In this document: positions 13,978 to 45,569 of the stretch, in pieces
How positions within the stretch are numbered: the first letter of the stretch is position 1
Layout of the letters: the number at the start of each line of letters is the position of its first letter
DNA from: Acidimicrobiia bacterium
GTDB taxonomy: Bacteria; Actinomycetota; Acidimicrobiia; Acidimicrobiales; SHLQ01
NCBI GenBank assembly: GCA_033344795.1
Contig: JAWPMS010000001.1
Coordinates: forward strand, 2,344,507 to 2,408,506
Direction: 5' to 3'
Length of the DNA: 64,000 nucleotides
The notes under the pieces: model-generated
Database searches by the model: none
The model's input: only the letters and a program-made list of their open reading frames with translations
Told to the model about the DNA's origin: nothing
Position numbers and translations under genes: made by a program

Positions 13978-15351
13978 CTAAACCAGGGCTGGCTCGCGCT
14001 CGTCGGGAGCTTCTTCGTCGGTCGTCGTCCCGTCGACGGGAGCGAGCCGACCTCGTGATGCTTCTACTTGGCGAATTCCGGCAGCGAGAACGGTCGCAAT
14101 GGCCACGAGCAGGAACACCCGCGGTGCCCTGGTGAACTTCTCGAGCAGATCGTCGATGCCCAATGAGGTCTCGAAGACCCTCTCGATCGCCCAGATCCCC
14201 GCGATGACCGCGAGCAGGATCGACCCGATTCGCAACACGAACGGATACAACACCGTTCGCCGCAGCAAGAACAGCGCAGGGAAGAGCAACAAGATGATGA
14301 ATGCCTGCCCGATCTCTACGCCGATGTTGAAGCCCAAGAGCGAGAGCACCCGCTGACCTCGACCGATTCCCAGGTCCGACAACAGACCGGCGAACCCAAA
14401 GCCGTGGAAGATCCCGAAGGCGAACGCGATGTACGCCTCCCGATTCGCGAAGATCGGTCGAAGATTGTGGATCGCAGTTGCGATGATCGATAACGCAATG
14501 ACCGTCTCGACGAACTTGCTCGGTAGCTCGATGATCTCGAGTCCACCGAGTGTGAGCGTGATCGAGTGCGCAACGGTGAACGCCGTGGCGATCTTGAGGA
14601 CTCGCCACAGCCCGTCCTTGAACGTCGGCACTGGAGACCATCCATCAGCGAGCGAGAACAACATGACGGCCGGAAGCAGCAGCACCAGGACGAACAAGAT
14701 GTGGTCGGTGCCGATGAAGATGTGCTCCATGCCCAGCGACACGGTGCCCGTGAAGGCCTTCCACAAGTTCGGATTGTCGAGGTTGACCGGGAGCGTGGGA
14801 CTGTCAGCTCTGATAAAGCCGGGAACAGCATCGCCCTCGTTCAAGAAGGTGCCGGTGACCGGGTCGGTGCGCATGACGACCTGAGCAAAATGGGTCTCAT
14901 CGCGGACGATGCCATCGAAGGTGACCTCGAAGACGCGTGGCGCAGAATCGAAGACGTTCTCGATGTCGAAGAGAAAGGCGCCGTATATCTCGTTCTCGGT
15001 TTCGATCGCGTCGACCTCGCCCGTGAACGTGATGTCCCACGGCGTGCCGTCCTCGGCCACGATGCTCAGATTGTCGGCGTTGTATGAGCGAACTGCCGCT
15101 TCGATCGCCGCGATGTCATCGGCGGTCGATTCGTTGGGATCGAGATCAAGATCGAACAGGTCGTTGAGCAGACCGACGGGGTGCTCGAGCTGGCCTTGCG
15201 CCGAACCGTCGGGAAAGACGTCGAGATAGACGACAGACGAATTGCCATCGTGCGCGCTGGCCACGCTGGTGAAAAGCATGCCAAACATCGGCACGAGCAT
15301 GACCGCCAAAGCTGCCATCAGTACGCGGGGGGATCGAGCTTTCGCCTTCAT
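13978..15351 (-). CDS. HupE/UreJ-family membrane protein with N-terminal extracytoplasmic domain
   Basis: 457 aa. Signal peptide, about 200-aa soluble domain, then TM region with FTVAHSITLTLG, FGIFHGFGFAGLL, GFNIGVEIGQ motifs. Confidence 0.7.
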   Translation of the reverse strand: MKAKARSPRVLMAALAVMLVPMFGMLFTSVASAHDGNSSVVYLDVFPDGSAQGQLEHPVGLLNDLFDLDLDPNESTADDIAAIEAAVRSYNADNLSIVAEDGTPWDITFTGEVDAIETENEIYGAFLFDIENVFDSAPRVFEVTFDGIVRDETHFAQVVMRTDPVTGTFLNEGDAVPGFIRADSPTLPVNLDNPNLWKAFTGTVSLGMEHIFIGTDHILFVLVLLLPAVMLFSLADGWSPVPTFKDGLWRVLKIATAFTVAHSITLTLGGLEIIELPSKFVETVIALSIIATAIHNLRPIFANREAYIAFAFGIFHGFGFAGLLSDLGIGRGQRVLSLLGFNIGVEIGQAFIILLLFPALFLLRRTVLYPFVLRIGSILLAVIAGIWAIERVFETSLGIDDLLEKFTRAPRVFLLVAIATVLAAGIRQVEASRGRLAPVDGTTTDEEAPDEREPALV

Positions 15352-15426: not shown

Positions 15427-16644
15427 TCAGGCCGGAAGGCCCAAAAGTCGAGCGATGATGTTCTTTTGAATGCTGGAAGCGCCTCCGTAGATCACGCCGC
15501 CACTGAGGTTTCGGAGATCTCGTTCGACGCCGAACTCGGTCACATAGCCGCGGGCACCATGTATTTCGACTGCGGCGAGTGCTCCTGCGAGCGCACCTTC
15601 ACTTCCGGCGAGTTTGCTGAGCGCTGCAGCCATCATCGAGCTTGCGCCTTGTTGTTGGAGCGCTGCGGCTTTGTACATGAGCAGCCGGGCCGACTCGTGC
15701 CCGAGCTTGACCTGGCTCAACGCATGCGAAACGCCTTGGAAAGATCCGATCGGCTCGCCGAACTGCTCTCGTGTTCGGCTGTATTCGACTGCGTCGTCGA
15801 GGACACGCTCGAGGGCGCCGATGCTGCCCACGAGGAGAAAGCCGCGTTCGGCTTCCATCGACGAGCTGAAAATGCTGGCGCCCGCCCCTTCGGCGCCCAT
15901 GCGGGCAGAGGTCGGCACGAAACAATCGGAGAACGTGACATCGGAGAAGGGCGTCGTGCGCATGCCCATCTTCGGGCGGTTCGGGCCCACCGTCAGGCCG
16001 GGAGTTGTGGCGGGTACGCAGAAGGCGGTGATTCCCCAACGGCCGAGCTCAGGGTTTGTGGTGGCGAAGATGATGAAGACATCGGCGACCGGGGCCATCG
16101 TGACCCAGCTCTTCTCTCCGTTGAGGACGTAGCCGCTCTCGACAGGAGTGGCCGTCGTCTGCAGCGAGTACGCATCGGAGCCCGAGCCGGCTTCGGACAT
16201 CGAGAACGATCCGATCGCCTCACCGCTCACCAGCTTCGGCATCCATTCGGCGGCCTGTTCTGGGGTGCCGAACCGTTCCATCGCCAATCCAACGGTCAGA
16301 ACTTGTGACGTCGTTGCGAAGACCAGCCCGTCATCGCGGCAACCGAGGCCCAAACCTTCGAGAGCCAGCAGTCCAGCGGTCAACGGGCGCCCTTGGCCAC
16401 CGAAGTCGGGTGAGGCCAGCAGGCCGAAGAGGCCCTCGCGTCCAATTCGTTCCCACCCCTCACGCCAGAAGGTGCAGCTGTGGTCTCGTTCCTCGAGCTG
16501 AGAGTCTGCCAGGTTGTGGCGAGCCCACTCGGCGACCGCCATCTTCGTGGGATGCTCGCCATCGAGAATTGCGGTGAGCATCTCGGTATCGGAGGCGTCG
16601 TCAAGGACCACGAGGTCATCCACCTGTGCATCCACGGCCTTCAT
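15427..16644 (-). CDS. acyl-CoA dehydrogenase-family flavoprotein (cluster-associated; IYGGAS instead of canonical YEG)
   Basis: 405 aa with ACAD N/M/C layout (GSFSMSEAGSGSDA, WVTMA, REQFGEPIGSFQ). C-terminal motif reads VIYGGASSIQKNII, whereas the other ACAD at 45570 has IFEGTEQIQQ. Divergent from the NRPS genes. Confidence 0.85.
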   Translation of the reverse strand: MKAVDAQVDDLVVLDDASDTEMLTAILDGEHPTKMAVAEWARHNLADSQLEERDHSCTFWREGWERIGREGLFGLLASPDFGGQGRPLTAGLLALEGLGLGCRDDGLVFATTSQVLTVGLAMERFGTPEQAAEWMPKLVSGEAIGSFSMSEAGSGSDAYSLQTTATPVESGYVLNGEKSWVTMAPVADVFIIFATTNPELGRWGITAFCVPATTPGLTVGPNRPKMGMRTTPFSDVTFSDCFVPTSARMGAEGAGASIFSSSMEAERGFLLVGSIGALERVLDDAVEYSRTREQFGEPIGSFQGVSHALSQVKLGHESARLLMYKAAALQQQGASSMMAAALSKLAGSEGALAGALAAVEIHGARGYVTEFGVERDLRNLSGGVIYGGASSIQKNIIARLLGLPA

Positions 16645-16712
16645 CGGCTTCGTACCTCTCTCACACCGCGAGGAATCTCGCAGTTGCCACTACGCAACGA
16701 GTACCACACAGA

Positions 16713-16724
16713 TGCAAATTTGCA
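16713..16724. promoter_or_regulatory. perfect 12-bp palindrome TGCAAATTTGCA in divergent promoter region (candidate operator)
   Basis: Lies in an AT-rich patch of the 210-bp intergenic region between ACAD (start 16644, minus) and the A-domain gene (start 16855, plus). Confidence 0.35.
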
Positions 16725-16854
16725 ATTCGAGTTCGCCCGGCGATCCAGCACTGAAATCCTTCGTGTCCAAAAGAACTATTTGCCCTGTCTACGTTCCGCG
16801 GCACGCTGTTGGATGCGAGATATCCGACCGATTGAAGAGAGGGAGCGTGCAAAC

Positions 16855-18462
16855 GTGAGTGTCGCCGTCGATCGTCGCGACGCGCCGTCGTTGAGTGGCC
16901 TGCTCGACGCGCAAGCCATGCGCTCTCCTGACAGCGACGCGGTTGTCGACGTCTCGCGCACGTGGTCCTACGCCGAAGTAGCGCAGGCTCGGGGACAGCT
17001 TTCCGCCGCGCTCCTTTCGTGCGGTGTTGTTCCAGGCGACCGCGTCGGCGTGCACCTGAACAAATGTGCTGAGGGATTCGTGGCAATGCATGCAGTCGTA
17101 TCGGTGGGAGCCATTGCGGTGCCTCTCGATCCGGGCTCCCCGGCGGTGCGGCTCGCACGCATCTGTGAACGAATGCAGATCGACGTGATCGTGTCGCATC
17201 AACCGCGCGTGGGCACACTCATGGAAGTACACGCACTCCGACCGATCGGCGCACTAATCGGCGTTGCGAGTGAGGAGCTCGACACCCGCTCGATCAGCTC
17301 CCAACAGTTGGCCGACTTCGAGGAAGCCTCGCCGCTCGACGTTGATGTCGACAGCCCGTCCTACATCATCACGACATCGGGCTCGACCGGCGAACCGAAG
17401 GGAATGGTGCACACACATCGAAGTGCGCTGGCCTACGCCAACATGACCCTTCGCACGTATGGGCTCTTGTCAGAAGATCGCGTGAGTGACATCGCCCCGC
17501 ACCACTTCGACATCTCGACACACTCACTGTGGTCCGTGCCACTCGCCGGGGCGGCAAACGTTGTCATCTCCGAGCCGTATCAGCGGTTGCCGGCGAGCCA
17601 TTCCCAGCGCCTCCAGGACGAACGTGTCTCGTACTGGTACTCGGTTCCCTTCTTGTTACACCAGCTCGTCCTGCGCGGCGATCTGAAGAATCGAGACCTG
17701 TCAGCCCTGCGGTGGGTTCACTTCGGCGGCGAAGTGATTTCGCCCACGGTCATTGCTGAGTTCATGCAGGCGGCCCCCAACGCCCGCTTCGCGAACATCT
17801 TTGGCCCCGCCGAGACGAACCAGTGCTCGGTGGCCTTCTTCGACGACGCTCCGGATCCAGACAAGATGTTGTCGGTGGGGTTCCCTCTCGATCACAGCGA
17901 TATTCGAATCATCGATCCCGCAGCGGACCACCCGGGACTCGAGAACGCCGTTCAGAGCGGCGAGATGTGGGCGTCGACGCCGCAGTTGATGGAGGGGTAC
18001 TGGCAACAACCAGACCTCAACGCTCGAGTCCTCGTCGAATGTGATGGGAAGACCTGGTATCGCACAGGCGATCTCGTCTCGACCGACGAGACCGGTGAGA
18101 TGACGTTTCATGGACGAGTCGATCATCAGGTCAAGGTTCGCGGATTTCGCATTGAACTCGAAGGCATCGAGTTGGAACTCGAACAACTCGGCGCTGCAGA
18201 TCATGTGGTGGTCGCCGTACTTCGAGCCGAGTCGGGTGAGGACGAACTGGTTGCAGGTCTGCTCGGTGTGAGCGACAAGTTCGAGCACGCTGACTTTGTG
18301 CAGCGCGCTGCATCCGTTCTGCCCGCCTACGCCGTACCTACTCAAAGCAGAGTGATCGATTCCGCCCGCTTCACTGGCAGCGGAAAGCTCGATCGACGGA
18401 CGCTTCGAGAGCACCTTCTCGAAGTCACGCAGCTCGAAACCCTGAAGGAACACCACGCATGA
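16855..18462 (+). CDS. stand-alone NRPS-type adenylation enzyme (amino acid-AMP ligase)
   Basis: Start set to GTG 16855 (GGGAG SD 9 nt upstream); ATG 16813 is an alternative. Cores YIITTSGSTGEPKGMVHTH, FDIS (Asp235 present), NIFGPAET, YRTGDLV, GRVDHQVKVRGFRIELEGIE, GSGKLDRR. Confidence 0.85.
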   Translation: MSVAVDRRDAPSLSGLLDAQAMRSPDSDAVVDVSRTWSYAEVAQARGQLSAALLSCGVVPGDRVGVHLNKCAEGFVAMHAVVSVGAIAVPLDPGSPAVRLARICERMQIDVIVSHQPRVGTLMEVHALRPIGALIGVASEELDTRSISSQQLADFEEASPLDVDVDSPSYIITTSGSTGEPKGMVHTHRSALAYANMTLRTYGLLSEDRVSDIAPHHFDISTHSLWSVPLAGAANVVISEPYQRLPASHSQRLQDERVSYWYSVPFLLHQLVLRGDLKNRDLSALRWVHFGGEVISPTVIAEFMQAAPNARFANIFGPAETNQCSVAFFDDAPDPDKMLSVGFPLDHSDIRIIDPAADHPGLENAVQSGEMWASTPQLMEGYWQQPDLNARVLVECDGKTWYRTGDLVSTDETGEMTFHGRVDHQVKVRGFRIELEGIELELEQLGAADHVVVAVLRAESGEDELVAGLLGVSDKFEHADFVQRAASVLPAYAVPTQSRVIDSARFTGSGKLDRRTLREHLLEVTQLETLKEHHA

Positions 18463-18707
18463 CCACCTCACTCGCTGAGCAATTGACAAGCTTCATCCAA
18501 GAAGAGATCGTGCTCGACGACGTCGTGGTGACCGGTGACTTCGATCTGCTGTTGTCGGGAGCAGTGGACAGTCTCGGTGTCATTCGCATCACGCACTGGA
18601 TGGAGGAGACGTTCGGGGTGGTGGTCGATCCTGGTGATGTCACGCTCGACAATTTCCAGACGATCGACAAGATGGCCGCATACCTCGACGCCCGAGCTGC
18701 GGTCTGA
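18459..18707 (+). CDS. stand-alone acyl/peptidyl carrier protein
   Basis: 82 aa with LLSGAVDSLGVIRI (DSL phosphopantetheine site). ATG 18459 overlaps the TGA of the A-domain gene (ATGA coupling). Confidence 0.85.
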   Translation: MTTSLAEQLTSFIQEEIVLDDVVVTGDFDLLLSGAVDSLGVIRITHWMEETFGVVVDPGDVTLDNFQTIDKMAAYLDARAAV

Positions 18708-18712
18708 ATTTC

Positions 18713-21700
18713 ATGACCAACTCGGTGTACCTCTCACCACGACGCTCTCTCACACCGTCGCAGGAACTGATCTGGACATCGCAGAGGCTGCAACCGGATT
18801 CACCGCATCAGAACATGGCGCTGATCACGAGGTTCGACGCCCCCATCGACGCTGGCCGTTTCTTGCACGCGGTGGACGTCGTCGCGAGTCGCAGCGATGC
18901 GTTGCGGACGACGGTCCGCGAGGTCGATGGGGTTCCGCACCCCGCCATCGCCTCAGCCACACCGTCACCGTGCACGGTGCTGCGCCTCGACGAAGCCCGC
19001 CTCGACGACTGGCTCGCCGATCGGATCGCTCGACCGATCGACATCGCCACCGCCGCATACGAGTCCGTGCTGCTCGATCACGGATCAGACCGCTGGTCTT
19101 GGTTCGTCAACGTGCATCACATCGTCATCGATGCTGCGAGTTCCGCCAACTTCTTCAATGCGGTCGCCGATGAGTATCACGGTTCGCCTGCGGACGTTCC
19201 GAGCTACACCGACGTGTGGACCGAGATGTCCAGCCAGAGTGATACGGCCCGCTTCGAAAAGGCGCGCGATCACTGGGCGCTGAGCCGAGAGGCCACGCCC
19301 ACTTCGATGTACCGACCAGACTCGGGTCCCACCAGCACCGCCGATCGCATCACAATCGAGATGGACTCCGGACGACAAACGCAACTCGACGCGTTGCTCT
19401 CCGATCGTTTCAAACTGCTCAGCCCGGACCTGTCGCTCATGACGGCACTCGCCACCGCGCTGTCGGCCTATCTCGCACGGCTCGGAAACGAATCCATCAC
19501 GATCGGCATTCCGATTCATCACCGCAGCACGAAGGCGGCGAAGGCAGTGATTGGACCGCTGGTCGAGATGTTCCCACTTCAGGTCGAGGTTCGCGACGAC
19601 GACACGTTTGGCTCCCTGCACGATCGAGTGACCCGGAGCGTCTTCGAGCTTCTGCGATACGCCCTACCTGGCACGAGTCCGCGTCAATCGTTCGATGTCG
19701 TGCTCAATGTGCACGGGGCCACCCTTGGATCATTCGGTCCCATACCAGCCCACACGACGTGGATCCACCCAGGGCACATCGACCCGCACCATCGCCTGCG
19801 GGTCCAAGCACTCGACTACGACGGCTCCGGCACCCTGGATCTCGGTCTGGATGTGAACCACCGGATCGCCGACGCGGATCATCGCCGGCGCGCAGGGGAG
19901 CACTTCGCAACCGTGCTCGATGTAATGGTCTCCAGCCCCGACACGAAGATTCATTCCGTCGTCTTGGTCGGTGAGGGTGAGCGACTCTTGCTCGAGCCAC
20001 TCACGAACCCCTCGGCCGGAACGCCGATCGACGACGTGGCTCCAGCAGTCGTCGCCGACCGTCTGCGCGCCAACCGCGATGTGCCGACACTCGCCCATGG
20101 CAACCGGGTGCTGTCGGCCGTCGAGCTCGACGATCGAATCGAAACGGTCTCGACGACCTTGCGTCGTGCCGGAATTGGCCGAGGAGACCTGATCGGTATC
20201 GAGATGCCGATCGGCATCCCGGCGGTGATTGCGATCCACGGGGTTTTGCGTGCTGGTGCGGCCTTTGTTCCGATCGATCCGACCTATCCCGACGCACGCC
20301 GCGAGCACATCCGCACGGACTCTGGTTGCGCTCTGGTGCTGACCTCGCTCGAAGAGCTCGAAGCGCTCGAAGTGACGGACGCTCCGACCGTTGGCTCGAG
20401 CGACGTCTCTGCCGACGATCTTGCCTATGTGATCTACACGTCGGGTTCGACCGGTCTTCCAAAGGGTGTGCCGATCACGCACCGGGGCCTCTCGGAGTAT
20501 CTGGGATTCGCCCACGGTGCCTATGCGAAGCGCGAGGGTGCGTCCACACATCAGCTCTGCATGCCTCTGTTCACGTCGCTGTCCTTCGACCTGACGATCA
20601 CCACGTTGTTCTTGCCCCTTCTTGCCGGCGGCCTGATGACCGTGCACCCCGAGGGCGGACTTCCGGCTCTGCGCGAGATCGTCGATGAAGGTCGAGCGAC
20701 CATCTTGAAGGCAACACCTTCACACCTGGAGCTTCTCGTTCGGATGCTCGATGCCGAGCATCCGCTCCGAACGCTGATTGTCGGCGGCGAAGCATTCATG
20801 ACCGATCTCGCTGATCGCCTGATCGATGTCCTGGGCGAGGATGTCGCGATCTTCAACGAATACGGACCGACAGAGGCGGTCGTTGGCTGCATGGAACATC
20901 TGTATGTTCCGGCGGCAGACCCTGGCCCCGAGGTACCCATTGGTCGACCAGCGCCTGGCGTCGAACTTCACATTCTCGACCGTTTCGGCCGACCCGTTCC
21001 CCTGGGCGTCGCAGGCGAGTTGGCAATTCACCGACCTGGCATGACGCAGGGATACCTGGGTCGACCTGACTTGAACGAGGCGAAACTCGTGCACATCGAG
21101 GACTCAGGTTCGGAGTCGCTTCTCTATCGAACCGGTGACCTCGTCCGAATGCTCGATGCAGACCGCATGGTGTACCTCGGTCGAATCGATGAGCAGATCA
21201 AGGTTGGCGGGATCCGTCTCGAACCGGGCGAAATCGAACACATCGCCCTGCAACTTCCGGGCGTGCAACGAGCTGTTGCCGGACTCTGGACTCCCGACCC
21301 GAACAGCGCAGTGGAACACTGCGTTCGTTGCGGACTTGGTTCCGACGTCCCCGACGTGACCATCGATGGCGATGGAGTCTGTTCGAGCTGTCATCACTTC
21401 GATCTCGTTGCACCGCAGGCCGAGGCCTGGTTCAAGGATGAAGACGACCTCGCCCTCGCGCTCTCCGACGCTCGCAACCGATCCACCGGTGACTACGACG
21501 TCGTCCACTTGATCTCCGGTGGCAAGGACTCGACCTACGCGCTCTACAAGCTCGTCGAGATGGGTGCTCGCGTCTTCGCCATCACGTTGGACAATGGCTA
21601 CATCGCGGACGTTGCGAAGGCCAACGTTCGCCGGGCGACGAGCGCCTTGGGGGTCGACCACGAATTCGTCACCGTCGACGGCATGGACGAGATCTTCCGA

Positions 21701-24700
21701 GACAGCCTCGACCGCTTCTCCAATGTGTGCAACGGCTGTTACAAGGCGATCTACACCATTGCGTTGGCCAAAGCTGAAGAGCTGGGAATCGGAGCGATTG
21801 TGACCGGCCTGTCTCGCGGGCAGTTCTTCGAGACCCGCCTGGTGCCCGGCATGTTCGAATCCGATCGATTCGACCCCGAGGCCATCGACGAGATGGTCAA
21901 GCAAGCACGACACGTCTACCACTCCACACCCGACGCGGTGTCCGAGCACATGGATGTCGACTTTCTCGACGACGAAACGATCTTTGATCGCATCACGTTC
22001 ATCGACTTCTACCGATACGTCGACGTCGAGCTGAGCGAGCTCTATCGCGCGCTCGACAGCAGCGGCACCTGGCAGCGGCCGCCAGATTCGGGTCGCTCAA
22101 CCAATTGCCTGATCAACGCTGCCGGAATCTTCGTTCACAAAATCGAACAGGGACATCACAACTACGCCGCCCCATACAGTTGGGACGTTCGGCTTGGTCA
22201 CAAGACTCGCGACGAGGCGCTCTACGAACTCGACGACCCAATGGATGACGCAGAGCTCTCGGCGATCACCAATATGCTCGCCGAGGTTGGCTATGAACCG
22301 CGCAAGCCTGAGGTGCTCACACTTTGGGTCGAGGCGACCTCCGATCTCGACCTCGAGTTGTTGCGAGAGGATCTGACGTCGGGCCTGCCCGCGCACGCTG
22401 TTCCGCAGGCGATCGAGCTGGTGGACACGATTCCTCTCACGACCAATGGCAAGGTTGATTCATCGGCTCTCCCCGCTCCGGCCTTCCGACGCACAGGGGC
22501 TACGCCAGGCGAAGGTCGGGTGCCCGAGTCGCGAACCGAAATTCAGATCGCTTCTGTCTGGGAGACCGTTCTCGGGCTGACGGGCGTCCGAGCAACCGAC
22601 GACTTCTTCGCCCTCGGTGGCACGTCGCTCCACGCACTCGAGATGATCGTTCGTGTGAGCGACCACTTCGACCTCGTCGTTCCCGAGTCGATCGCCTTCA
22701 CCCGACGCACCATCGCTGATCTCGCGACGCACATCGACGACGCACTCGGGGCCATCACCGATGACCCAGCCGAGGCGGTTTCTGCACGTGCGGCCCTGAC
22801 CATTCCCGACGTCGAGAGCGACCGACTGCCGTTGTCGGCGGGCGAAGACGCGATGTTGTACGAGTGGAGGCGCGATCCGTCCGACACCCGCTACAACGTG
22901 GCCCGCCTTTACTCCCTCCCGGCTGACGTCGATCTCGCTCGATTCACCGAAGCGGTCCGTGTGGTGGTTGCACATCAACCGACTCTGCACACCTCGTATG
23001 GGCCCCGACGAAACACACTCTCTGTCGACGCAGCCCTGTGGGTCGGTGAGGCAAAATCTGAGGTGGCGAGGCTTTCCGAGTTGGCCGACAGCATCAACCA
23101 GATGCAATTCGACCTGATCACCGGTCGGCTGATCACACTTCACTACCTGCGAAGCGATCACCCTTCGGACAGGGGAGTCGTCGGCGCGCTGCTTCGGACG
23201 CACCACATCGTGAGCGATGCTGGTTCGCTCGACGTCCTCTGGAACCAGATCGATCAGGCATACCGGGGCGAGACGCTTGCACCCCTCGCAGTCTCGTACG
23301 CGGCGCACGGGGTCTGGCAGCGTCAGAGGTCGGCCGATCCAGAGGTGGTGTGGAGCCCGGCCGAGGCGCCCGGCGAATTGCTCATTCGAGGATCGCAGCC
23401 CGAGCCCGACGGATATGTCCATCGTGATGCACCGATATCCATGAGCCAGATGCGCAACGCGCCAGCGACCACCCCGTTCGCGAGTGCCCTCACCGCGTTG
23501 GCTGCATCGATGGCGCCGTATCACGACCGGTCAACCTTTGAGCTCACGGTGACTTCTTCGGTGCGTGACCATCCAGATCTGGCCAATGTGGTCGGATACT
23601 TCTTGAACCCGCTCCCGCTGCTCGTCGATGTTGATTCGACGAGGTCGGTTGCATCGCTGGCCGATGATGTGAGCGGACAGCTCGCCGTCGCGCTGGAACA
23701 CCGCGCGGTGCCGTTTGGCTCCATCGTGCGATCCGCGAGGACGCGGGGTCTGACGCCGCCATCCGGTCGGATCATGCTCGCGGTCGAAGATCTTGCCCCA
23801 TCAGAGCTCGACGGGGTTCCGGTCGATCACACGATCTTGTCCTCCGGAACCGCCGTCAACGACCTGACGTTCTTCGTGCAAATCCGCGAGGAGCTCGTCG
23901 AGTTGGGCGTGGAGTATCGAGGCGCAACGATCGGCCGTTCTCTCGCGACGCGTTTGCTCGACGAGTTCGCGCAGACGCTGCTGGCACTCGTCGATGACCC
24001 CTCTCGGGCCGTTGGAGACCTGGGCGTCCGACCCGCGCCTCTCCGCGGTCGAGAACTCACCTCCCCTCCAATCCAGGCGTCAACGCTCATCGACGAGTCG
24101 ATCGACGCAGTTCCCGACCGACCGGCTGTTCGCTGTGGAAACTCGATGCTCACCTACGCAGAATTGGATGAGCGGTCGCGCTCCCTGGCGGCACGCTTGC
24201 GGGCCGTGGGCGTAGGCGCCGGCGACCGGGTCGCAGTTGTGCTTCCACGCTCTACCCATCTGCCCGTAGCTATTCGGGCCAGTTGGATACTCGGCGCGAG
24301 TTACGTCCCGATCGATGTTTCGCAGCCCGCGTCGCGTGTGACCGAGCTGCTTTCGGCAGCGGACGTGGTCGCTGCTGTCACCTCAGGCGATGGCCATCGA
24401 GGTCTCACCGAAGTCACGACCGTCAACATCGATCATGGCGACAACGCGGTGCTCCCCGTGACCCGCAAACATGCGACCGAGCCCAGCGACGAGGCATATG
24501 TCATCTTCACTTCGGGCTCAACCGGCCGTCCGAAGGGTGTGCCGATCTCGCACGCGAACCTGGCGGCATCGCTTGCGGCTCGACGCGAGTGGTACGAGGA
24601 CCCCGTCGACCGGTACCTGGTGGTCTCGAGCGCTGGCTTTGATTCATCGGTAGCCGGTCTCTTCTGGGCGCTCGCTGACGGTGGTGAGATCGTCTTGCCG

Positions 24701-26692
24701 ACCGAGGATGAGGTTCACAATGTCGACGCGCTGCTGACTCTGATCGAGAAGTCCGCGCCGTCGCACACCCTGATGGTGCCTTCGCTCTACGGAGCTCTGC
24801 TCAGCCGACAGTCGGGTCCGCTACCCGCCATCACCACGGTGATCGTTGCGGGAGAAGCCTGTCCCCCTGCCTTGGTGGCCGAACACCATGCCGTCGCGCC
24901 AGGAGTGGAGTTGACAAACGAGTACGGACCCACCGAAGCCACGGTGTGGTCGACGGTTCATCGTTGTACAGCCGACGATGCGATGTTGGTACCGATCGGT
25001 CGCCCGATCCCCGGCGTCGCGGTCGAAGTCGTCGACGACCACGGACAGTCGCTCCCGTTCGATGCTGCGGGTGAATTGTGGGTTTCTGGTCCGGGCGTGG
25101 CGGACGGATATCTTGGCGAAACGCAGTCGACTGCGTTTCTCCCTGACCGGGGGACTGGTCCGATCTATCGAACCGGCGACCTGGTTGTTCGCCGGGATGA
25201 CGGTGTCCTCGAATTCCTGGGGCGGATCGATTCACAGCTCTCCGTGGGTGGCGTGCGGATCGAACCAGCCGAGGTCGAGAACGTTCTGAGTGCAATTCCC
25301 GGCGTGTCCGCGGCGATCGTCGATCTTCGTGGTCGTCAGCTCATCGGCTGGGTGGAGAGCGCCCAGCAGCTCTCGAGTGCCGACCTCGTGAAATCGGTTG
25401 CCGCGGTCCTTCCTCAGACGCACGTCCCAAAACGAATCATCGTTCTTCCCCGGCTTCCACGAACCCAGAATGGGAAGGTCGATCGCGCCGCGACCGGCGA
25501 GCTTCCCGCCGAAGCCCCTAGCGGGTCGTTGCCCGATGTCGCTTCAGACGAATCGGACGGCCTTGATCCCGTCGTTGCCTCGGTCACCGCCATCTTCATG
25601 GCAGCCTTCGATGGCGAGCCGATGACGCCCCATACCGACTTCTTCGATGCCGGCGGAGACTCGCTTCGCGCCGTCGCCCTCGTATCACTTCTCGAAGCCG
25701 AGTTCGGCCGACGGGTCGCTATTGGTGAATTGATCGATGCGCCCACACCCACGTCGCTCGCCGCGCGCCTCGACCAGGCCCCACAGGTGATCGATGGTGT
25801 GCCGGCGGCCTCCATTGCAGACGATGGCGTCGTCGGCCGCGCGCAGGTCGCCGCTCGCCCCGATGGACTGGTCGAATGGCTTCGCTCATCTGGTTCTCAG
25901 AGGCCCTTGATCGTGTTGCCTCCCGGTGGCGGAAACCTGCTGCGGTATGCGCCGCTCGTGAAGAACCTCGACGAAGACATTCCCGTCGTCGGCGTGCGTC
26001 TGCCGGGAGCTGACGCTCGCAGCGAGATCGTGGATTCCATCGCTGCCCAGGCGGTCACGATGCTCGAAGCGCTGGACAGCGCCGTCGATCACGGCCCATA
26101 CCGTTTGCTCGGCTGGTCTACAGGTGGTCTCCTTGCCTGGGAGATCGGCCGTCTGCTTCAGGAGCGAGGCGACGAAGTCGAGATCGTCGCAATGGTCGAC
26201 ACGGTGATGGCGGGCCTCAAGGTGGACGACACCGGAACGATCGCCAATAAGTACGCCGACATGTTGCGCGAGGAAGGCATCCGATCCGTTGTCGAGGAAG
26301 GAACCTCCCGTGTGCGGGAGCGTGTGTCGTTTGCTCTCGCTCGGCGGCGATATCGGTCCGCCCGTGAAGCTGGGCAGACGCCGTCGCTCGAAGATGCAGA
26401 GCGTCAACTGGGCCCGGTCATCCGTCGTGCAGCACTGAACTATCGACCGAAGTTCCTCGATCTACCGATCGTGTATTTCTCGGCGAGTGCGTCCGAGGAT
26501 GCGGTCACGGTCGATCCGTGGACCGAGGTTCAGGGGTCGGATCGTCCGCTCGATGTGGTTGTCATCGAAGGTGTGCACTTTCTCCCGGAGGACGAGTGCA
26601 TCATCGGGCGCCATCGTGTGCACGAGCTGGTCGCGGCGTTGCACGCACGCCTGCGGTCCAACGGCGGTGAAGGTCAGAGGGCTGCCGTATAA
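18713..26692 (+). CDS. non-ribosomal peptide synthetase, C-A(PP-loop insert)-T-C-A-T-TE
   Basis: 2659 aa. Landmarks: C1 HHIVID nt 19115-19132; A1 A3 core from 20426; A8 21179-21238; SGGKDS 21515-21532; A9 LPAHAVP from 22385; A10 NGK 22445-22453; T1 GGTS Ser 22625; C2 HHIVSD 23201-23218; A2 A3 core from 24497; A10 Lys 25475; T2 GGDS Ser 25661; TE GWSTG Ser 26117. Confidence 0.95.
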   Translation: MTNSVYLSPRRSLTPSQELIWTSQRLQPDSPHQNMALITRFDAPIDAGRFLHAVDVVASRSDALRTTVREVDGVPHPAIASATPSPCTVLRLDEARLDDWLADRIARPIDIATAAYESVLLDHGSDRWSWFVNVHHIVIDAASSANFFNAVADEYHGSPADVPSYTDVWTEMSSQSDTARFEKARDHWALSREATPTSMYRPDSGPTSTADRITIEMDSGRQTQLDALLSDRFKLLSPDLSLMTALATALSAYLARLGNESITIGIPIHHRSTKAAKAVIGPLVEMFPLQVEVRDDDTFGSLHDRVTRSVFELLRYALPGTSPRQSFDVVLNVHGATLGSFGPIPAHTTWIHPGHIDPHHRLRVQALDYDGSGTLDLGLDVNHRIADADHRRRAGEHFATVLDVMVSSPDTKIHSVVLVGEGERLLLEPLTNPSAGTPIDDVAPAVVADRLRANRDVPTLAHGNRVLSAVELDDRIETVSTTLRRAGIGRGDLIGIEMPIGIPAVIAIHGVLRAGAAFVPIDPTYPDARREHIRTDSGCALVLTSLEELEALEVTDAPTVGSSDVSADDLAYVIYTSGSTGLPKGVPITHRGLSEYLGFAHGAYAKREGASTHQLCMPLFTSLSFDLTITTLFLPLLAGGLMTVHPEGGLPALREIVDEGRATILKATPSHLELLVRMLDAEHPLRTLIVGGEAFMTDLADRLIDVLGEDVAIFNEYGPTEAVVGCMEHLYVPAADPGPEVPIGRPAPGVELHILDRFGRPVPLGVAGELAIHRPGMTQGYLGRPDLNEAKLVHIEDSGSESLLYRTGDLVRMLDADRMVYLGRIDEQIKVGGIRLEPGEIEHIALQLPGVQRAVAGLWTPDPNSAVEHCVRCGLGSDVPDVTIDGDGVCSSCHHFDLVAPQAEAWFKDEDDLALALSDARNRSTGDYDVVHLISGGKDSTYALYKLVEMGARVFAITLDNGYIADVAKANVRRATSALGVDHEFVTVDGMDEIFRDSLDRFSNVCNGCYKAIYTIALAKAEELGIGAIVTGLSRGQFFETRLVPGMFESDRFDPEAIDEMVKQARHVYHSTPDAVSEHMDVDFLDDETIFDRITFIDFYRYVDVELSELYRALDSSGTWQRPPDSGRSTNCLINAAGIFVHKIEQGHHNYAAPYSWDVRLGHKTRDEALYELDDPMDDAELSAITNMLAEVGYEPRKPEVLTLWVEATSDLDLELLREDLTSGLPAHAVPQAIELVDTIPLTTNGKVDSSALPAPAFRRTGATPGEGRVPESRTEIQIASVWETVLGLTGVRATDDFFALGGTSLHALEMIVRVSDHFDLVVPESIAFTRRTIADLATHIDDALGAITDDPAEAVSARAALTIPDVESDRLPLSAGEDAMLYEWRRDPSDTRYNVARLYSLPADVDLARFTEAVRVVVAHQPTLHTSYGPRRNTLSVDAALWVGEAKSEVARLSELADSINQMQFDLITGRLITLHYLRSDHPSDRGVVGALLRTHHIVSDAGSLDVLWNQIDQAYRGETLAPLAVSYAAHGVWQRQRSADPEVVWSPAEAPGELLIRGSQPEPDGYVHRDAPISMSQMRNAPATTPFASALTALAASMAPYHDRSTFELTVTSSVRDHPDLANVVGYFLNPLPLLVDVDSTRSVASLADDVSGQLAVALEHRAVPFGSIVRSARTRGLTPPSGRIMLAVEDLAPSELDGVPVDHTILSSGTAVNDLTFFVQIREELVELGVEYRGATIGRSLATRLLDEFAQTLLALVDDPSRAVGDLGVRPAPLRGRELTSPPIQASTLIDESIDAVPDRPAVRCGNSMLTYAELDERSRSLAARLRAVGVGAGDRVAVVLPRSTHLPVAIRASWILGASYVPIDVSQPASRVTELLSAADVVAAVTSGDGHRGLTEVTTVNIDHGDNAVLPVTRKHATEPSDEAYVIFTSGSTGRPKGVPISHANLAASLAARREWYEDPVDRYLVVSSAGFDSSVAGLFWALADGGEIVLPTEDEVHNVDALLTLIEKSAPSHTLMVPSLYGALLSRQSGPLPAITTVIVAGEACPPALVAEHHAVAPGVELTNEYGPTEATVWSTVHRCTADDAMLVPIGRPIPGVAVEVVDDHGQSLPFDAAGELWVSGPGVADGYLGETQSTAFLPDRGTGPIYRTGDLVVRRDDGVLEFLGRIDSQLSVGGVRIEPAEVENVLSAIPGVSAAIVDLRGRQLIGWVESAQQLSSADLVKSVAAVLPQTHVPKRIIVLPRLPRTQNGKVDRAATGELPAEAPSGSLPDVASDESDGLDPVVASVTAIFMAAFDGEPMTPHTDFFDAGGDSLRAVALVSLLEAEFGRRVAIGELIDAPTPTSLAARLDQAPQVIDGVPAASIADDGVVGRAQVAARPDGLVEWLRSSGSQRPLIVLPPGGGNLLRYAPLVKNLDEDIPVVGVRLPGADARSEIVDSIAAQAVTMLEALDSAVDHGPYRLLGWSTGGLLAWEIGRLLQERGDEVEIVAMVDTVMAGLKVDDTGTIANKYADMLREEGIRSVVEEGTSRVRERVSFALARRRYRSAREAGQTPSLEDAERQLGPVIRRAALNYRPKFLDLPIVYFSASASEDAVTVDPWTEVQGSDRPLDVVVIEGVHFLPEDECIIGRHRVHELVAALHARLRSNGGEGQRAAV
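21302..22311 (+). other. PP-loop ATP pyrophosphatase / amidotransferase-like domain inserted in adenylation domain A1 between cores A8 and A9
   Basis: CVRCGLGSDVPDVTIDGDGVCSSC zinc ribbon (from nt 21320), DVVHLISGGKDSTYAL PP-loop, VCNGCYKAIY...IVTGLSRGQFFE. A8 to A9 spacing is 382 aa, far longer than in A2 of the same protein. Boundaries approximate. Confidence 0.8.
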
Positions 26693-27636
26693 CGGCTCAC
26701 CCGGTCGACCAGTCCGCCGTATCGCTTCTCGAGCGCACCTTCCACATCATCGGGTTCCGCCACCACGGCGAATGTTTTGAGCATTCCATCGTCGATGACG
26801 TCGGCCAGTTCGGCCCAGCGATTCGACTTCGTCAGCGAGTTGAGCTCGAGTTGGGCATCTCCCCAGCCATGGAAGTCCAAGACGTCTTTGTATGCCGGTG
26901 TCGATCCATAGAAGCCGATCTGCTGTTTGATCGCAATCGCCGAAGCGGCCATCTCGTCTTCGTCGTCTCCGGTGACGACGAACGCCGGGAGTGATACCTC
27001 GACTTCATCATGGGGACGGTTCGCATCGTCCATGTACTTGCGCATCTTTGGAAGCGCCACCGACGCGAAGTGTTCCGGCGTCGTGAAGGGGTGGACCATC
27101 CATCCGCTGCACTGTTCGGCGGCCACCTTCACCATCAGTGGCCCAACAGCAGCGAGAAAGACTCGTGGCCGACCGTGACTCGCCGGACCCGGGTTGAAGA
27201 AGTCCGTCATCAGGATGTGTGTGTAGTGCTCACCTTTGAATCGGAGCGGTTCGCCGGTGTCCCAACAGTCCCAAATGGCTTCCAGGGCAGCGATGAATTC
27301 ACGCATCCTGGCCGCTGGCGCGGTCCATGGCATCGAAAATCGCTTCGTGATGTGTGGTTTGATCTGGCTCCCGAGACCGAGAATCATCCGGCCCTCCGAG
27401 AACTCGTTGAGATCACGCGCCGTGTGGGCGAGCGTCATTGGATTGCGAGCGAACGCAACGGCGATCGAGGTACCGAGATCCAGCCGCTCGGTCGATTCCG
27501 CCGCGAGGACCAACGGTAGGAATGGGTCATGCGACGTTTCCGCCGTGAAGGCCCCAGCGAATCCTCGTTCTTCGAGACTTGCGGCTTGGTCGCCCACGCG
27601 GGCGAGGTCGTTGTGCAGGGTTGCGTCCGAGAGCAT
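26674..27636 (-). CDS. LLM-class (luciferase-like) F420-dependent oxidoreductase
   Basis: 320 aa. Typical LLM pattern (ERGFAGAFTAETSHDPF, LGTSIAVAFARNP, GRMILGLGSQ). The 3' end converges on and overlaps the NRPS stop by 19 nt. Confidence 0.8.
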   Translation of the reverse strand: MLSDATLHNDLARVGDQAASLEERGFAGAFTAETSHDPFLPLVLAAESTERLDLGTSIAVAFARNPMTLAHTARDLNEFSEGRMILGLGSQIKPHITKRFSMPWTAPAARMREFIAALEAIWDCWDTGEPLRFKGEHYTHILMTDFFNPGPASHGRPRVFLAAVGPLMVKVAAEQCSGWMVHPFTTPEHFASVALPKMRKYMDDANRPHDEVEVSLPAFVVTGDDEDEMAASAIAIKQQIGFYGSTPAYKDVLDFHGWGDAQLELNSLTKSNRWAELADVIDDGMLKTFAVVAEPDDVEGALEKRYGGLVDRVSRYTAAL

Positions 27637-27675
27637 GCACCGATGTTAGATACTGCTCGCTGCTACCGTGCGACG

Positions 27676-28284
27676 ATGCATCGTCACATCTCCGTCGTTT
27701 TCGATCTGGGCAACGTCTTGATCGAGTGGGATCGACGCAACCTTTTTGCGAAGCTCATCGATGATCCAATCGAGTTGCAGGCCTTCTTGGACACCGTTTT
27801 CACCATGGAGGACAACATGGAGCTCGACCGCGGCACGCCACTGCATGATGTGGCCAGCGCCGTCGCGGCACGACATCCCGAGCAGCGAGAACTCGTGATG
27901 GCATTCGCAGATCGTTGGGTGGAGACCCTGGGGGGTGTCATCGAGGGAACGGTGGAAATTCTCGACGAGCTGAGTCTCAACGGCGTGCCCCTCTATGCGC
28001 TCAGCAACTGGGGGCGCGACACCTTTGCGATGATCGAACCCAACTACTCCTTCTTCGAGTTGTTCGACGGCATGGTGATCAGCGGCCGGGAGGGTGTGAT
28101 CAAACCCGATCCCGCGATCTTCGATCTGCTCTGCACCCGGTATGGATTCGCGCCGGAGGATGCCGTGTTCATCGACGACTCTGGAGCGAATGTCGCTGCT
28201 GCCATGTCGCTCGGGTTCGACGCGCTGCTGTTCGAACGACCCGATCGCCTGCGTCAACAGCTGGTCGAACGAAATCTTCTCTGA
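27676..28284 (+). CDS. HAD-superfamily hydrolase
   Basis: From ATG 27676: VVFDLGNVLIEW (motif I), LSNW (motif II), FIDDSGANV (motif IV). The track ORF from 27529 overlaps the LLM gene and was trimmed. Confidence 0.8.
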   Translation: MHRHISVVFDLGNVLIEWDRRNLFAKLIDDPIELQAFLDTVFTMEDNMELDRGTPLHDVASAVAARHPEQRELVMAFADRWVETLGGVIEGTVEILDELSLNGVPLYALSNWGRDTFAMIEPNYSFFELFDGMVISGREGVIKPDPAIFDLLCTRYGFAPEDAVFIDDSGANVAAAMSLGFDALLFERPDRLRQQLVERNLL

Positions 28285-28300
28285 CCTACGTCGACCGGCA

Positions 28301-29338
28301 TCAGCGACAGCCCTGCACGCTGAGGTCGTCGAGTAGTGGACCGATTGCCGTTGCGGTGGTCGGAAGGAGGCACGCCTGACCTGGGTTGCCAAACTCGAGC
28401 CGCAAGAGAGCTGAATCTGCACGAAGCGCTTCAGGAGTGTCGATGACCGCGTTGCCGAGGCTGTATGCGACGGTCGACTGACCGACCCGATCGAAGCGCT
28501 GGATGAAGTCCGAGCCGTGGCCGATCACCGCGTCGACGCCGGCATCGACCAACTGCTGGATGCTGTCGATCTGTTCGGGGGTGGGGGAGCGATCATCGAG
28601 GGAACCCACGTCGACCACCACGACGACGCCCAATCCCTCTTCGTGGCGCGTGGCCACCTCCTCGAGGAGCGCATCGAACGATGCAGGTCCGGCAATGCCG
28701 GCGGTGACCGCCCCAGCCGATGCAGCGTCGTCCGCTCTGAGTGAGATCGCATGCAGCGAGATCATCGAGTCGCCGCTGCCGGCTGTGAGCCCGTTGACGG
28801 CGCTGGCTTCGTTGGGGCCATATCCGAGCACGTTGAGGCCTTTCGTGCCGACGTCGACCACGAATGTTCGAAGATCTTCCCCAGCGGTTGCAGCCTCGGC
28901 AGTCGCGACGTTCAGCAGATCGACGCCGCCAAGCGACCACCCGGTCACCTCGTCGGCACCGCAACCCTCGGCGGTCGGGGCGCAGCCCAAAGAGGCAACC
29001 GTCACCAGATCGTTGCCGATGACGGGTACGTCGGACTGCCACGCTGCAGACGGGTCAGTGATCGAACGGATACTGCCGAGCACATGCAGGATTGGATTCG
29101 CTCGCGTGCTGGCCTGCGGAGCCGTCGTCGTGGTTCGGTTCGGGTCCAGGGTGGCGTCGATTGGATCCGCGGCAAGCCGAGCGTTGATCGTCGTGGTCGT
29201 CGTTGACGCCCCGAGCGAAGTGTTGTCTCCCTCGTCACTGGAGCAAGCAGCGAGAATCAGGGCGCTGACGCCCAGGGCAATCAGAACCTGTGCCGAAGAT
29301 CGGTGAGCCCGCAAGATCGCGGAATGAAGTGACAGCAC
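28301..29338 (-). CDS. secreted lipoprotein, CapA/metallophosphatase-like C-terminal region (degenerate)
   Basis: Lipobox LILAAC. Start chosen at GTG 29338 so the signal peptide is about 31 aa; the track start is 29395. C-terminal VDAGVDAVIGHGSDFIQ...AYSLGN resembles CapA-family proteins. Confidence 0.5.
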   Translation of the reverse strand: MLSLHSAILRAHRSSAQVLIALGVSALILAACSSDEGDNTSLGASTTTTTINARLAADPIDATLDPNRTTTTAPQASTRANPILHVLGSIRSITDPSAAWQSDVPVIGNDLVTVASLGCAPTAEGCGADEVTGWSLGGVDLLNVATAEAATAGEDLRTFVVDVGTKGLNVLGYGPNEASAVNGLTAGSGDSMISLHAISLRADDAASAGAVTAGIAGPASFDALLEEVATRHEEGLGVVVVVDVGSLDDRSPTPEQIDSIQQLVDAGVDAVIGHGSDFIQRFDRVGQSTVAYSLGNAVIDTPEALRADSALLRLEFGNPGQACLLPTTATAIGPLLDDLSVQGCR

Positions 29339-29422
29339 CAACTCAGTCTGCCGTGTCGGGCGCAAGTGGGGCGCGCACCCCCGTGAACCCGTCACGAACC
29401 TGGCCGCCTCTAACCTTGGAGA

Positions 29423-45508: not shown

Positions 45509-45569
45509 TTGCGGCATCAATTCTCCGCCCGGGTGACCGACTTGGAAGTGGACGACCCTGGAGGCCGAC

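Follow-up and report, generated by a model that had tools for sequence, protein, structure and literature searches.

The subject here is a 64,000-nucleotide stretch of an Acidimicrobiia bacterium genome (contig JAWPMS010000001.1, positions 2,344,507 to 2,408,506), referred to in what follows as 'the window', and particularly what is encoded between its positions 13978 and 26692. That region is one orphan biosynthetic gene cluster, belonging to a cluster family without a known product. It brings together a flavoprotein of the acyl-CoA dehydrogenase (ACAD) family, a free-standing adenylation enzyme, a small carrier protein, and a bimodular non-ribosomal peptide synthetase (NRPS), plus a membrane protein. 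As a whole, our favored reading, to which we assign a probability of roughly 0.72, is that the cluster would make an acyl-tripeptide consisting of a proline-derived ring, a modified asparagine, and a histidine, in that order. The genes of the cluster are as follows:

13978..15351, minus strand: anglerase-HupE/UreJ-2 membrane protein (PF13795, 150 bits), directly downstream of the ACAD-family gene
15427..16644, minus strand: ACAD-family flavoprotein (three Acyl-CoA_dh Pfam domains)
16855..18462, plus strand: free-standing adenylation enzyme (Pfam AMP-binding; D235 and K517; code DIHYHGIQCK)
18459..18707, plus strand: 82-aa carrier protein (PF00550, 32 bits; serine within GAVDSLG)
18713..26692, plus strand: NRPS of 2659 aa (Pfam Condensation twice, AMP-binding twice, PP-binding twice, and Thioesterase)

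The free-standing adenylation (A) enzyme starts with a GTG codon at 16855, which a GAGGGAG ribosome-binding site precedes by 10 nt. It is coupled to the carrier protein (CP) by an ATGA overlap, i.e., with the ATG at 18459 and the TGA at 18460-18462, and the CP stop codon in turn is separated from the NRPS start codon (ATG at 18713) by a gap of only 5 nt. Both junctions had been described in an earlier note on this DNA, made from sequence alone, and both can be read directly in the sequence. The coordinates of that note for five genes (ACAD, free A, CP, NRPS, and a convergent oxidoreductase gene at 26674-27636) are all exact in the open reading frame (ORF) list as well, with the domains it stated confirmed by Pfam. 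So too does its domain order for the NRPS hold up, as judged from Pfam along with motif positions, that is, C-A(PP-loop)-T-C-A-T-TE, where C is condensation, T is carrier, and TE is thioesterase. Independent extraction, furthermore, returned codes identical to those which had been derived by hand, i.e., DIHYHGIQCK for the free A enzyme and DSALIAEVWK for the second A domain (A2) of the NRPS. At the level of sequence, the central idea of the note, i.e., a starter supplied by A, CP, and ACAD to a C-started NRPS which then incorporates a modified Asn toward a tripeptide-like product, is supported too. Within the NRPS, all on the plus strand, the following are found:

18713..20032, plus strand: condensation domain C1 (HHIVID at aa 135)
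20033..21307, plus strand: adenylation domain A1, motifs A1-A8 (Asn code DLTKIGEVGK)
21308..22300, plus strand: AMDH insert (SGGKDS at aa 935-940; N-terminal CxxC…CxxC; homology to CysH)
22301..22507, plus strand: C-terminal part of A1 (A9 LPAHAVP, A10 NGKVD)
22535..22747, plus strand: carrier domain T1 (GGTSL)
22775..24067, plus strand: condensation domain C2 (HHIVSD at aa 1497)
24080..25498, plus strand: adenylation domain A2 (His code DSALIAEVWK)
25565..25777, plus strand: carrier domain T2 (GGDSL)
25880..26689, plus strand: thioesterase (PF00975, 77 bits; GWSTGG)

Module 1 is distinguished by its insert, which sits between motif A8 (aa 823-842) and motif A9 (aa 1225) such that the gap separating these motifs is 382 aa in A1 versus 43 aa in A2. 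A Pfam QueC/ThiI PP-loop match falls within the insert (aa 929-1037), as too does a match to TIGR03573, a family of N-acetyl sugar amidotransferases (97 bits). The closer comparison is with the AMDH domain of CysH, from cystobactamid biosynthesis, with which the insert shares 44% identity across 329 aa (E 1e-111; CysH sequence taken from the supplement of PMC7966384), and the SGGKDS PP-loop is invariant across 12 AMDH homologues. The A1 code itself, DLTKIGEVGK, is listed for a 3-cyanoalanine position elsewhere (PMC12283262), and in the form DLTK[IV]GEVGK is invariant in all related loci. By its code, A1 is thus Asn-specific, and by its homology the insert is an AMDH domain.

What this AMDH domain would do can be viewed from the perspective of CysH. 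There, AMDH dehydrates carrier-bound Asn to beta-cyanoalanine, a nitrile, or instead isomerizes the residue to isoasparagine if the hydroxylase CysJ has acted previously (PMC7966384). No hydroxylase gene is encoded between 13978 and 26692. Because the cluster lacks one, by analogy with CysH as found without CysJ, the nitrile is the likelier outcome of module 1 and isoasparagine the less favored. AMDH homologues have been described as numerous, as all residing inside of Asn-specific A domains, and as linked in no case to a metabolite (PMC7966384). Six cysteines also are invariant among the 12 AMDH homologues, these being the N-terminal CxxC…CxxC along with C141 and C144 of a CNGC motif. CysH is dark brown when purified and probably contains a metal (PMC7966384), and the AMDH cysteines possibly form a Zn or Fe-S site, perhaps one of relevance to the AMDH mechanism.

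With module 2, the A2 code matches a published His-activating signature (PMC12283262) at 10 of 10 positions. Residue 3, which the earlier note had left unassigned while reading its code correctly, is by this exact signature His. The pattern DS[AV]L[IVM]AEVWK is retained in related loci, in copies found on Rhodobacterales plasmids, and in four unrelated metagenome loci (L086, L093, L094, and L095). To place the pairing of modules in a broader perspective, an exhaustive HMMER search (E<=1e-30) yielded 562 AMDH-insert representatives, i.e., clusters at 50% identity, and among the best 147 of these, which were inspected, 46 possess two A domains. The second code is His-like in 40 of those 46, with the remaining six consisting of truncated proteins except for one Ser code and one repeat of the AMDH module's own Asn code. 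Since these 40 two-A proteins and the related loci share a His-like second code, the Asn(AMDH)-His pair is, at the level of codes and domains, the core which a large family has in common, albicidin and the cystobactamids being its atypical members.

The evidence regarding the starter begins with the flavoprotein. Among NCBIfam models it scores highest with RedW (L-prolyl-PCP dehydrogenase; PCP, peptidyl carrier protein), at 342 bits, and with PigA, at 327 bits, with the next family trailing at 242 bits, that is, a lead for the RedW and PigA models of approximately 100 bits. Its best matches in the PDB are AnaB (4irn, 284 bits) and PigA (5zw0, 257 bits, and also 6af6), followed by 6cxt, an entry which carries the depositor label of butyryl-CoA dehydrogenase but which is probably Bmp3, judging from reference 42 of PMC10849742. 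Identity is 39-42% to pyrrole-type enzymes though just 28% to the other ACAD of the window (45537-46793). Particularly, E266 of the cluster ACAD (within EAERG) aligns with the corresponding Glu of AnaB (EWERG) as well as with that residue of PigA which has been mutated to Ala in 6af6. This Glu is the catalytic base in both AnaB and Bmp3, in a description as well of the A/ACP/ACAD logic, ACP being acyl carrier protein (PMC10849742). At the position of the canonical ACAD Glu (YEGT), by contrast, the cluster enzyme has Gly387 (IYGGAS) versus IFEGT in the second, housekeeping ACAD, a difference which had been pointed out previously and which is real. Given IYGGAS together with the aligned catalytic Glu, the cluster ACAD therefore is, by its sequence relationships, a flavoprotein of the prolyl-carrier-protein oxidase type rather than a fatty-acyl-CoA dehydrogenase. 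Its predicted separateness from ordinary acyl-CoA dehydrogenases accordingly has survived comparison with both NCBIfam models and solved structures.

The free A enzyme possesses both D235 and K517, from which follows, as had been suggested, a likely alpha-amino acid substrate. It scores 298 bits with TIGR01733 (amino-acid adenylation), just under the cutoff of 317. The reference for a pyrrole-type code comes from cassettes found in plasmid records, i.e., a Brasilonema cassette of P450-ACAD-A-ACP-FAD oxidoreductase (A code DLLYLALVCK) and an S. microflavus cassette of KSIII-ACP-A-ACAD, where KSIII is ketoacyl synthase III (A code DLFYLALVCK). Of single-domain PDB entries, the one matching the S. 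microflavus A enzyme best is PltF (286 bits). No NCBIfam prolyl-AMP ligase model was among the matches listed, even for PltF-like enzymes, and neither DIHYHGIQCK nor DL[LF]YLALVCK was found by full-text literature search. Among orthologous clusters, the codes of the free A enzymes drift, with DQFYLGVQCK the most common and with DMLYLAIQCK, DIFYKGVQCK, and DIHYQGVMCK seen as well. Tyr278, Cys331, and Lys517 stay constant over this range while positions 239 and 299 vary. One of these codes, DMLYLAIQCK, matches DLLYLALVCK at 7 of 10 positions, and the codes thereby form a continuum toward the pyrrole type.

Sister clusters supply a further indication. A gene of the ornithine-cyclodeaminase family (PF02423, 185 bits, with ornithine cyclodeaminase as top NCBIfam model) is present in about 17 sister loci, and in about 10 of those it directly precedes the free A gene. 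A starter of proline, or perhaps of pipecolate, is thereby indicated for the family. The subclade to which the window belongs nevertheless does not possess this gene and its A pocket is more polar, for which reasons we rate a proline-type starter as only somewhat better than an even bet. As to how the starter would reach the NRPS, the top partial NCBIfam matches of C1, both weak, are to the N-terminal C domains of MxcG (57 bits) and EntF (33 bits). In both, that domain takes its donor from an aryl carrier protein. C1 thus may accept a carrier-bound starter in trans.

From these genes, domains, motifs, codes, and homologies, along with the co-conservation described below, we infer the following sequence of events, including the starter's identity, the extent of its oxidation, nitrile formation versus isomerization, and the mode of release. 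The free A enzyme would load an alpha-amino acid, most likely L-proline or a cyclic imino acid close to it, onto the 82-aa CP. The AnaB/PigA-type flavoprotein would then oxidize the resulting thioester, by two or by four electrons, to a pyrroline- or instead a pyrrole-2-carboxyl unit. C1 would condense this carrier-bound acyl unit with the Asn of module 1, and the AMDH domain would turn carrier-bound Asn into beta-cyanoalanine, or alternatively isoasparagine. Module 2 presumably adds His, with release by the thioesterase of an acyl-tripeptide-like product. For pyrrole-2-carbonyl-(beta-cyanoAla)-His, C15H16N6O4, the [M+H]+ calculated by hand would be 345.131, and for its Asn or isoAsn counterpart, C15H18N6O5, it would be 363.141, with pyrroline forms 2.016 higher.

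That the cassette and the NRPS belong together is seen in their co-inheritance. A scan using the insert alignment, with one genome per species, found at least 575 loci, of which the best 80 were analyzed. Those 80 are all from metagenome-assembled genomes (MAGs) of Acidimicrobiales or Ilumatobacteraceae, at 56-91% identity, which places the window among them, and an F420-dependent enzyme is in keeping with Actinomycetota. Together with two further loci (L001 and L002), these make up 82 related loci, and 64 of them include 7.3 kb or more of DNA upstream of the insert. In those 64 loci, an ACAD gene is present in 52, a free A gene in 51, a CP gene in 60, and C1 in 61, with all four found together in 47. 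The ACAD gene, in other words, is co-conserved with the NRPS, and the CP, with its phosphopantetheine serine (DSLG), is co-inherited with both A enzyme and oxidase. In six variant loci (L030, L034, L035, L046, L055, and L062), there is an NRPS, a CP gene, and a minus-strand HupE gene but neither an ACAD nor a free A gene. As the latter two are absent, these loci presumably employ another starter.

A number of observations weigh against the favored reading, and most of these concern the starter. Just 4 of 10 positions of DIHYHGIQCK agree with the canonical pyrrole-cassette code, DL[LF]YLALVCK; a dissimilarity from the classic Pro code, DVQLIAHVVK, had been flagged before. Among solved relatives of the free A enzyme, PltF ranks only 13th, at 161 bits. 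Positions 239 and 299 are both His here but are hydrophobic in those sister clusters which bear the ornithine cyclodeaminase gene, and because of that difference in polarity the starter in the window's subclade could differ from that of the sister clusters. The flavoprotein, too, falls below NCBIfam equivalog cutoffs (342 versus 650 bits for RedW; 327 versus 500 for PigA), as likewise do ACADs from typical pyrrole cassettes on plasmids (L090 and L091), at 466-492 and 372-392 bits. In the window as a whole, no PPTase (phosphopantetheinyl transferase), MbtH, or exporter was found: tblastn (E>1) and a motif scan produced no MbtH or PPTase homologue in the window, the negative for MbtH being a weak one. 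The earlier note had said the same concerning MbtH and PPTase, and that part stands, but in also reporting no exporter it overlooked the HupE/UreJ-2 permease gene at 13978-15351. Expression of the cluster, its product, and any role of that product with metals are, moreover, all deductions from sequence.

Two rival explanations should be considered in light of the above. With one, the starter is not proline but a more polar amino acid, e.g., one which is hydroxylated or acidic, with the flavoprotein generating an alpha,beta-dehydro or otherwise desaturated aminoacyl unit. This is what would be suggested by the His residues at 239 and 299, where at 299 close relatives instead have Lys or Gln, and where pyrrole cassettes have Phe or Leu at 239 and Leu at 299. 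PltF not being a close relative of the free A enzyme fits as well, as too does absence from the window's subclade of the ornithine cyclodeaminase of its sister clusters. Yet the nearest characterized relatives of the flavoprotein all act on prolyl carrier proteins, the catalytic Glu has been kept, orthologous free A codes grade continuously into the pyrrole type, and it is specifically orthologous free A genes which ornithine cyclodeaminase genes adjoin. A non-proline starter we consequently view as rather unlikely, though well worth keeping in mind. With the other explanation, the A/CP/ACAD cassette does not feed the NRPS at all but instead some other pathway, such as toward free pyrrole-2-carboxylate or toward a lipid or envelope modification in conjunction with the membrane protein. 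The ACAD and HupE genes are indeed divergent from the NRPS operon, and the six variant loci do retain NRPS, CP, and HupE without ACAD or free A. The NRPS, however, requires an external donor since its first domain is a C domain and a loading module is missing, the CP gene both overlaps the A gene and ends 5 nt prior to the NRPS, and 47 of 64 loci contain all four elements. A separate pathway for the cassette is thereby quite improbable, and delivery of an oxidized, probably proline-type starter to the NRPS is what we continue with here.

The membrane protein encoded at 13978-15351 raises the question of what the peptide would be for. It possesses a signal peptide, and behind it an extracytoplasmic, anglerase-like domain (approximately 170 aa) which leads into a HupE/UreJ-2 permease domain. 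The predicted mature N terminus is a His (…SVASA|HDGNSS), and the permease domain includes an Hx5DH motif, EHIFIGTDH. Invariant across 28 permease homologues are H34, H210, D216, H217, H262, H295, and H316. A Foldseek search using the AlphaFold2 model (pLDDT 79.8) returned a sole significant PDB match, to 9gce (E 1.4e-4, probability 1.0), with the match limited to 14% sequence identity and a TM-score of 0.54. That structure shows an Ang-1 domain, from a HupE/UreJ-2 protein, with Cu bound. Anglerase domains bind Cu2+ and Ni2+ via a mono-histidine brace and are proposed to feed the permease, with metal binding shown for RbAng-1a and MmAng-2a only, and NRPS genes are not mentioned in the available part of the neighborhood analysis of these proteins (PMC12537917). 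On the basis of its sequence and model, the product of 13978-15351 is predicted to be an anglerase-HupE/UreJ-2 Cu/Ni permease.

A HupE-type gene is found beside an AMDH-His NRPS in four gene orders, spread over several phyla. In the window and most Acidimicrobiales, the order is HupE-ACAD divergent from A-CP-NRPS. On Rhodobacterales plasmids it is HupE-PCP-ACAD-MT-A divergent from the NRPS (MT, methyltransferase), and in metagenome locus L095 it is ACAD-HupE-A-CP-NRPS. In two more metagenome loci (L086 and L093), a classical HupE of PF04955 adjoins a synthetase of A(Ser code)-T-C…C-A(AMDH)-T-C-A(His)-T-TE organization. This recurrent linkage, the terminal His, and an analogy with X-X-His peptides are together why the peptide would possibly act in copper, nickel, or cobalt handling. 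X-X-His is the classic Cu/Ni, or ATCUN (amino-terminal Cu(II)- and Ni(II)-binding), motif, and a pyrrole-2-carboxamide N terminus would keep its 5,5,6 pattern of chelate rings. By analogy, therefore, the ring nitrogen, two amide nitrogens, and imidazole of the window's peptide could together chelate a metal in an ATCUN-like manner, through four nitrogens. Stated more generally, C-A(Asn)AMDH-T-C-A(His)-T-TE synthetases, with their variable starters, may constitute a new class making His-terminated, Cu/Ni/Co-binding peptides which work together with co-encoded anglerase-HupE/UreJ-2 permeases, the window's being a member with an oxidized, proline-type starter. This is a proposal which we make tentatively, at clearly less than even odds.

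The competing explanation is that the product is an ordinary secreted bioactive, e.g., an antibiotic, a signal, or a protease inhibitor, which has no role with metals and to which the HupE/UreJ-2 gene is a mere syntenic neighbor. HupE-type proteins are ion importers and are not known as metallophore transporters. Within the cluster and its immediate neighbors, Pfam and NCBIfam revealed neither genes for recognized chelating groups (e.g., catechol or hydroxamate) nor metallophore transporters of the TonB, ABC, or MFS kinds, i.e., no known chelator biosynthesis and no siderophore-type transport. A HupE-like gene, furthermore, was found within the flank of just 40 of the 64 loci, thus missing from the retrieved flank in 24. 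These are all points against a metal role, as too is that albicidin and the cystobactamids, which alone among the products of AMDH have been characterized, inhibit gyrase (PMC7966384). Against a mere neighbor, on the other hand, is that the HupE-type gene recurs in four gene orders which are unrelated, being inside of the starter operon in two, and that in another lineage it comes from a different Pfam family, PF04955. Due to these varied gene orders and to that different family, inherited synteny alone hardly explains the linkage. A bioactive with no metal role nonetheless is a serious contender, one to which we would give not quite even chances.

Comparison with known systems helps to distinguish what is familiar here from what is not. 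The starter cassette is like PltF/PltL/PltE, RedM/RedO/RedW, PigI/PigG/PigA, and Bmp4/Bmp1/Bmp3, which give rise to pyrrole, and like AnaC/AnaD/AnaB, which gives rise to pyrroline. That is, all consist of a free A enzyme, a small CP, and an ACAD flavoprotein, with the catalytic Glu position shared and the canonical ACAD Glu absent. The window's cassette differs in its free A code (DIHYHGIQCK versus DL[LF]YLALVCK), in an ACAD which is below equivalog cutoffs, and in passing its acyl unit straight to a C-started NRPS, there being neither a halogenase nor a KSIII or transferase. Likewise the AMDH domain resembles those of CysH (cystobactamid) and AlbIV (albicidin) in its 44% identity to the former, its SGGKD PP-loop, and its insertion into an Asn A domain. 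Those systems, though, employ a stand-alone A-AMDH-T among p-aminobenzoate modules versus the window's C-A(AMDH)-T-C-A(His)-T-TE, and the window possesses neither a CysJ-type hydroxylase nor a CysQ methyltransferase. With the Ang-1/Ang-2-HupE/UreJ-2 permeases, as represented by 9gce, the shared features are PF13795, a beta-sandwich domain, and an invariant His following the signal peptide (PMC12537917).

For metal binding, a comparison can be made with chalkophomycin, a Cu(II)-binding NRPS/PKS (polyketide synthase) product with a proline-derived N-hydroxypyrrole (PMC10849742). It provides precedent for a pyrrole unit of A/ACP/ACAD origin serving as a copper ligand in a non-ribosomal product. 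Chalkophomycin differs in having two ACAD-like enzymes of its own, including an N-oxygenase, in its diazeniumdiolate, and in its assembly line, and AMDH, a His module, and a HupE gene are all absent from it. Small, His-containing metallophores for Ni, Co, Zn, and Cu exist as well, i.e., the His-based opines staphylopine and pseudopaline, but Cnt-type biosynthesis or transport genes are not present here. ATCUN peptides start with a free amine, whereas the window's product would start with the nitrogen of a pyrrole or pyrroline, and an isoasparagine linkage would change the ring sizes. In short, each of the parts is known (proline-type oxidation cassette, AMDH, His module, and TE). New are the way in which they are combined, the Asn(AMDH)-His core shared across the family, and the link to a permease. 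A search of the literature, mostly outside of subscription journals, came across no paper in which AMDH homologues are linked within one cluster to a His module, to a proline-type cassette, or to HupE, and no described product of the cluster family other than what is found in the cystobactamid paper. One further comparison, with the sponge pyrrole-imidazole alkaloids (oroidin family), was set aside, there being no sign of bromination or of 2-aminoimidazole. The oroidin side chain, in addition, has one carbon more than histidine.

What would be gained is, to begin with, a concrete prediction of what a large family of orphan clusters makes. The Cu/Ni anglerase permeases, described only recently, would in turn gain a candidate partner in physiology. 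If the proposed metal-binding class is real, then it would represent a widespread, non-siderophore metallophore system of marine and soil Acidimicrobiia, of Rhodobacterales, and of other phyla. If instead the metal role is wrong, then the window still would hold a new NRPS family member with a rare nitrile or isoasparagine residue. Two cultured hosts, both marine Rhodobacterales, are known to carry the cluster on plasmids, Pseudohalocynthiibacter aestuariivivens RR4-35 and Roseovarius pelagicus HL-MP18. The plasmid loci are these:

NZ_CP049039: L083/L085
NZ_CP106737 (Roseovarius pelagicus HL-MP18), 153882-167571: L092

The plasmid clusters have A-MT-ACAD-PCP-HupE divergent from an NRPS of 2682 aa, C-A(AMDH)-T-C-A(His)-T-TE, and given the methyltransferase gene their product may be heavier by 14.016. 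As the two plasmids share identical WP_ accessions for seven cluster or flanking proteins, and as Tn7-like TniQ, TniB, and transposase genes adjoin, recent horizontal transfer is suggested.

Sister loci vary as well in their accessory genes, with subsets encoding a PhyH-family dioxygenase (about 30 loci), the ornithine cyclodeaminase described above, a Cupin_8/JmjC-like hydroxylase, or a methyltransferase. Examples of such genes are found in L043 (4443-5432, minus strand), L031 (4544-5602, plus strand), L056 (3323-4282, plus strand), and L054 (2461-3327, plus strand). The window has none of these genes and so represents a minimal version of the cluster. Outside of the two-module arrangement, a stand-alone, AMDH-like protein of 387 aa is encoded in a non-NRPS neighborhood of a Chloroflexota chromosome, CP070785 (10001-11163 of L087), and an A(AMDH)-T protein is found beside capsule and sugar-modification genes (L088, 540-2183). 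Two loci labeled as Verrucomicrobiales/Chthoniobacterales MAGs (L005, JBLIMK010000015; L006, CAXMRH010000073) show 87-90% insert identity to the window and to Acidimicrobiales MAGs, with the same gene order, and are probably mis-binned actinobacterial contigs.

Between the two divergent arms of the cluster lies an intergenic region which appears to be conserved in part:

16645..16854, no strand: divergent intergenic (promoter) region, as seen in an alignment of 12 orthologous intergenic regions

Across these 12 regions there is a conserved block, GTACCACA-N9-10-ATGCAAT, and then downstream of it CTACG…GGATGC. Within 16645-16854 there is no Rfam family, no sigma-70 consensus, and no terminator match, and the conserved blocks could be an operator or instead an unusual promoter. 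A riboswitch or other known RNA was considered for this region, with Rfam providing nothing. A perfect, 12-nt palindrome, TGCAAATTTGCA, is present at 16713-16724, overlapping the ATGCAAT block, and is seen once in the window versus 0.03 expected by chance. It was considered as the operator of a metal regulator and was rejected, as its relaxed form is unmatched in any of 91 loci and as the alignment conserves only ATGCAAT. An in-frame ATG at 16807, i.e., 48 nt 5' of the GTG of the free A gene, falls inside of the conserved GGATGC block. Because spacing from this ATG to the start is out of frame in some orthologues, conservation of the block there probably is non-coding rather than reflecting a start codon.

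Downstream of the NRPS is a convergent gene:

26674..27636, minus strand: LLM/F420-type oxidoreductase (Bac_luciferase; TIGR03617, 440 bits)

It overlaps the NRPS end by 19 nt, as follows from the coordinates and as had been noticed, and at 440 bits versus a cutoff of 278 it is a genuine member of the F420-dependent TIGR03617 family. The region covered by the earlier note (15427-27636) had taken in this gene. It is, however, conserved in only 7 of the 60 loci with sufficient downstream DNA, all of these close relatives, and for that reason it has been dropped from the cluster and rejected as a tailoring enzyme. Further downstream of it are two overlapping minus-strand ORFs (27646-28422 and 28301-29395) for which the gene calls are uncertain; one has no Pfam match while the other matches PGA_cap, which is found near the cluster in L001 as well.

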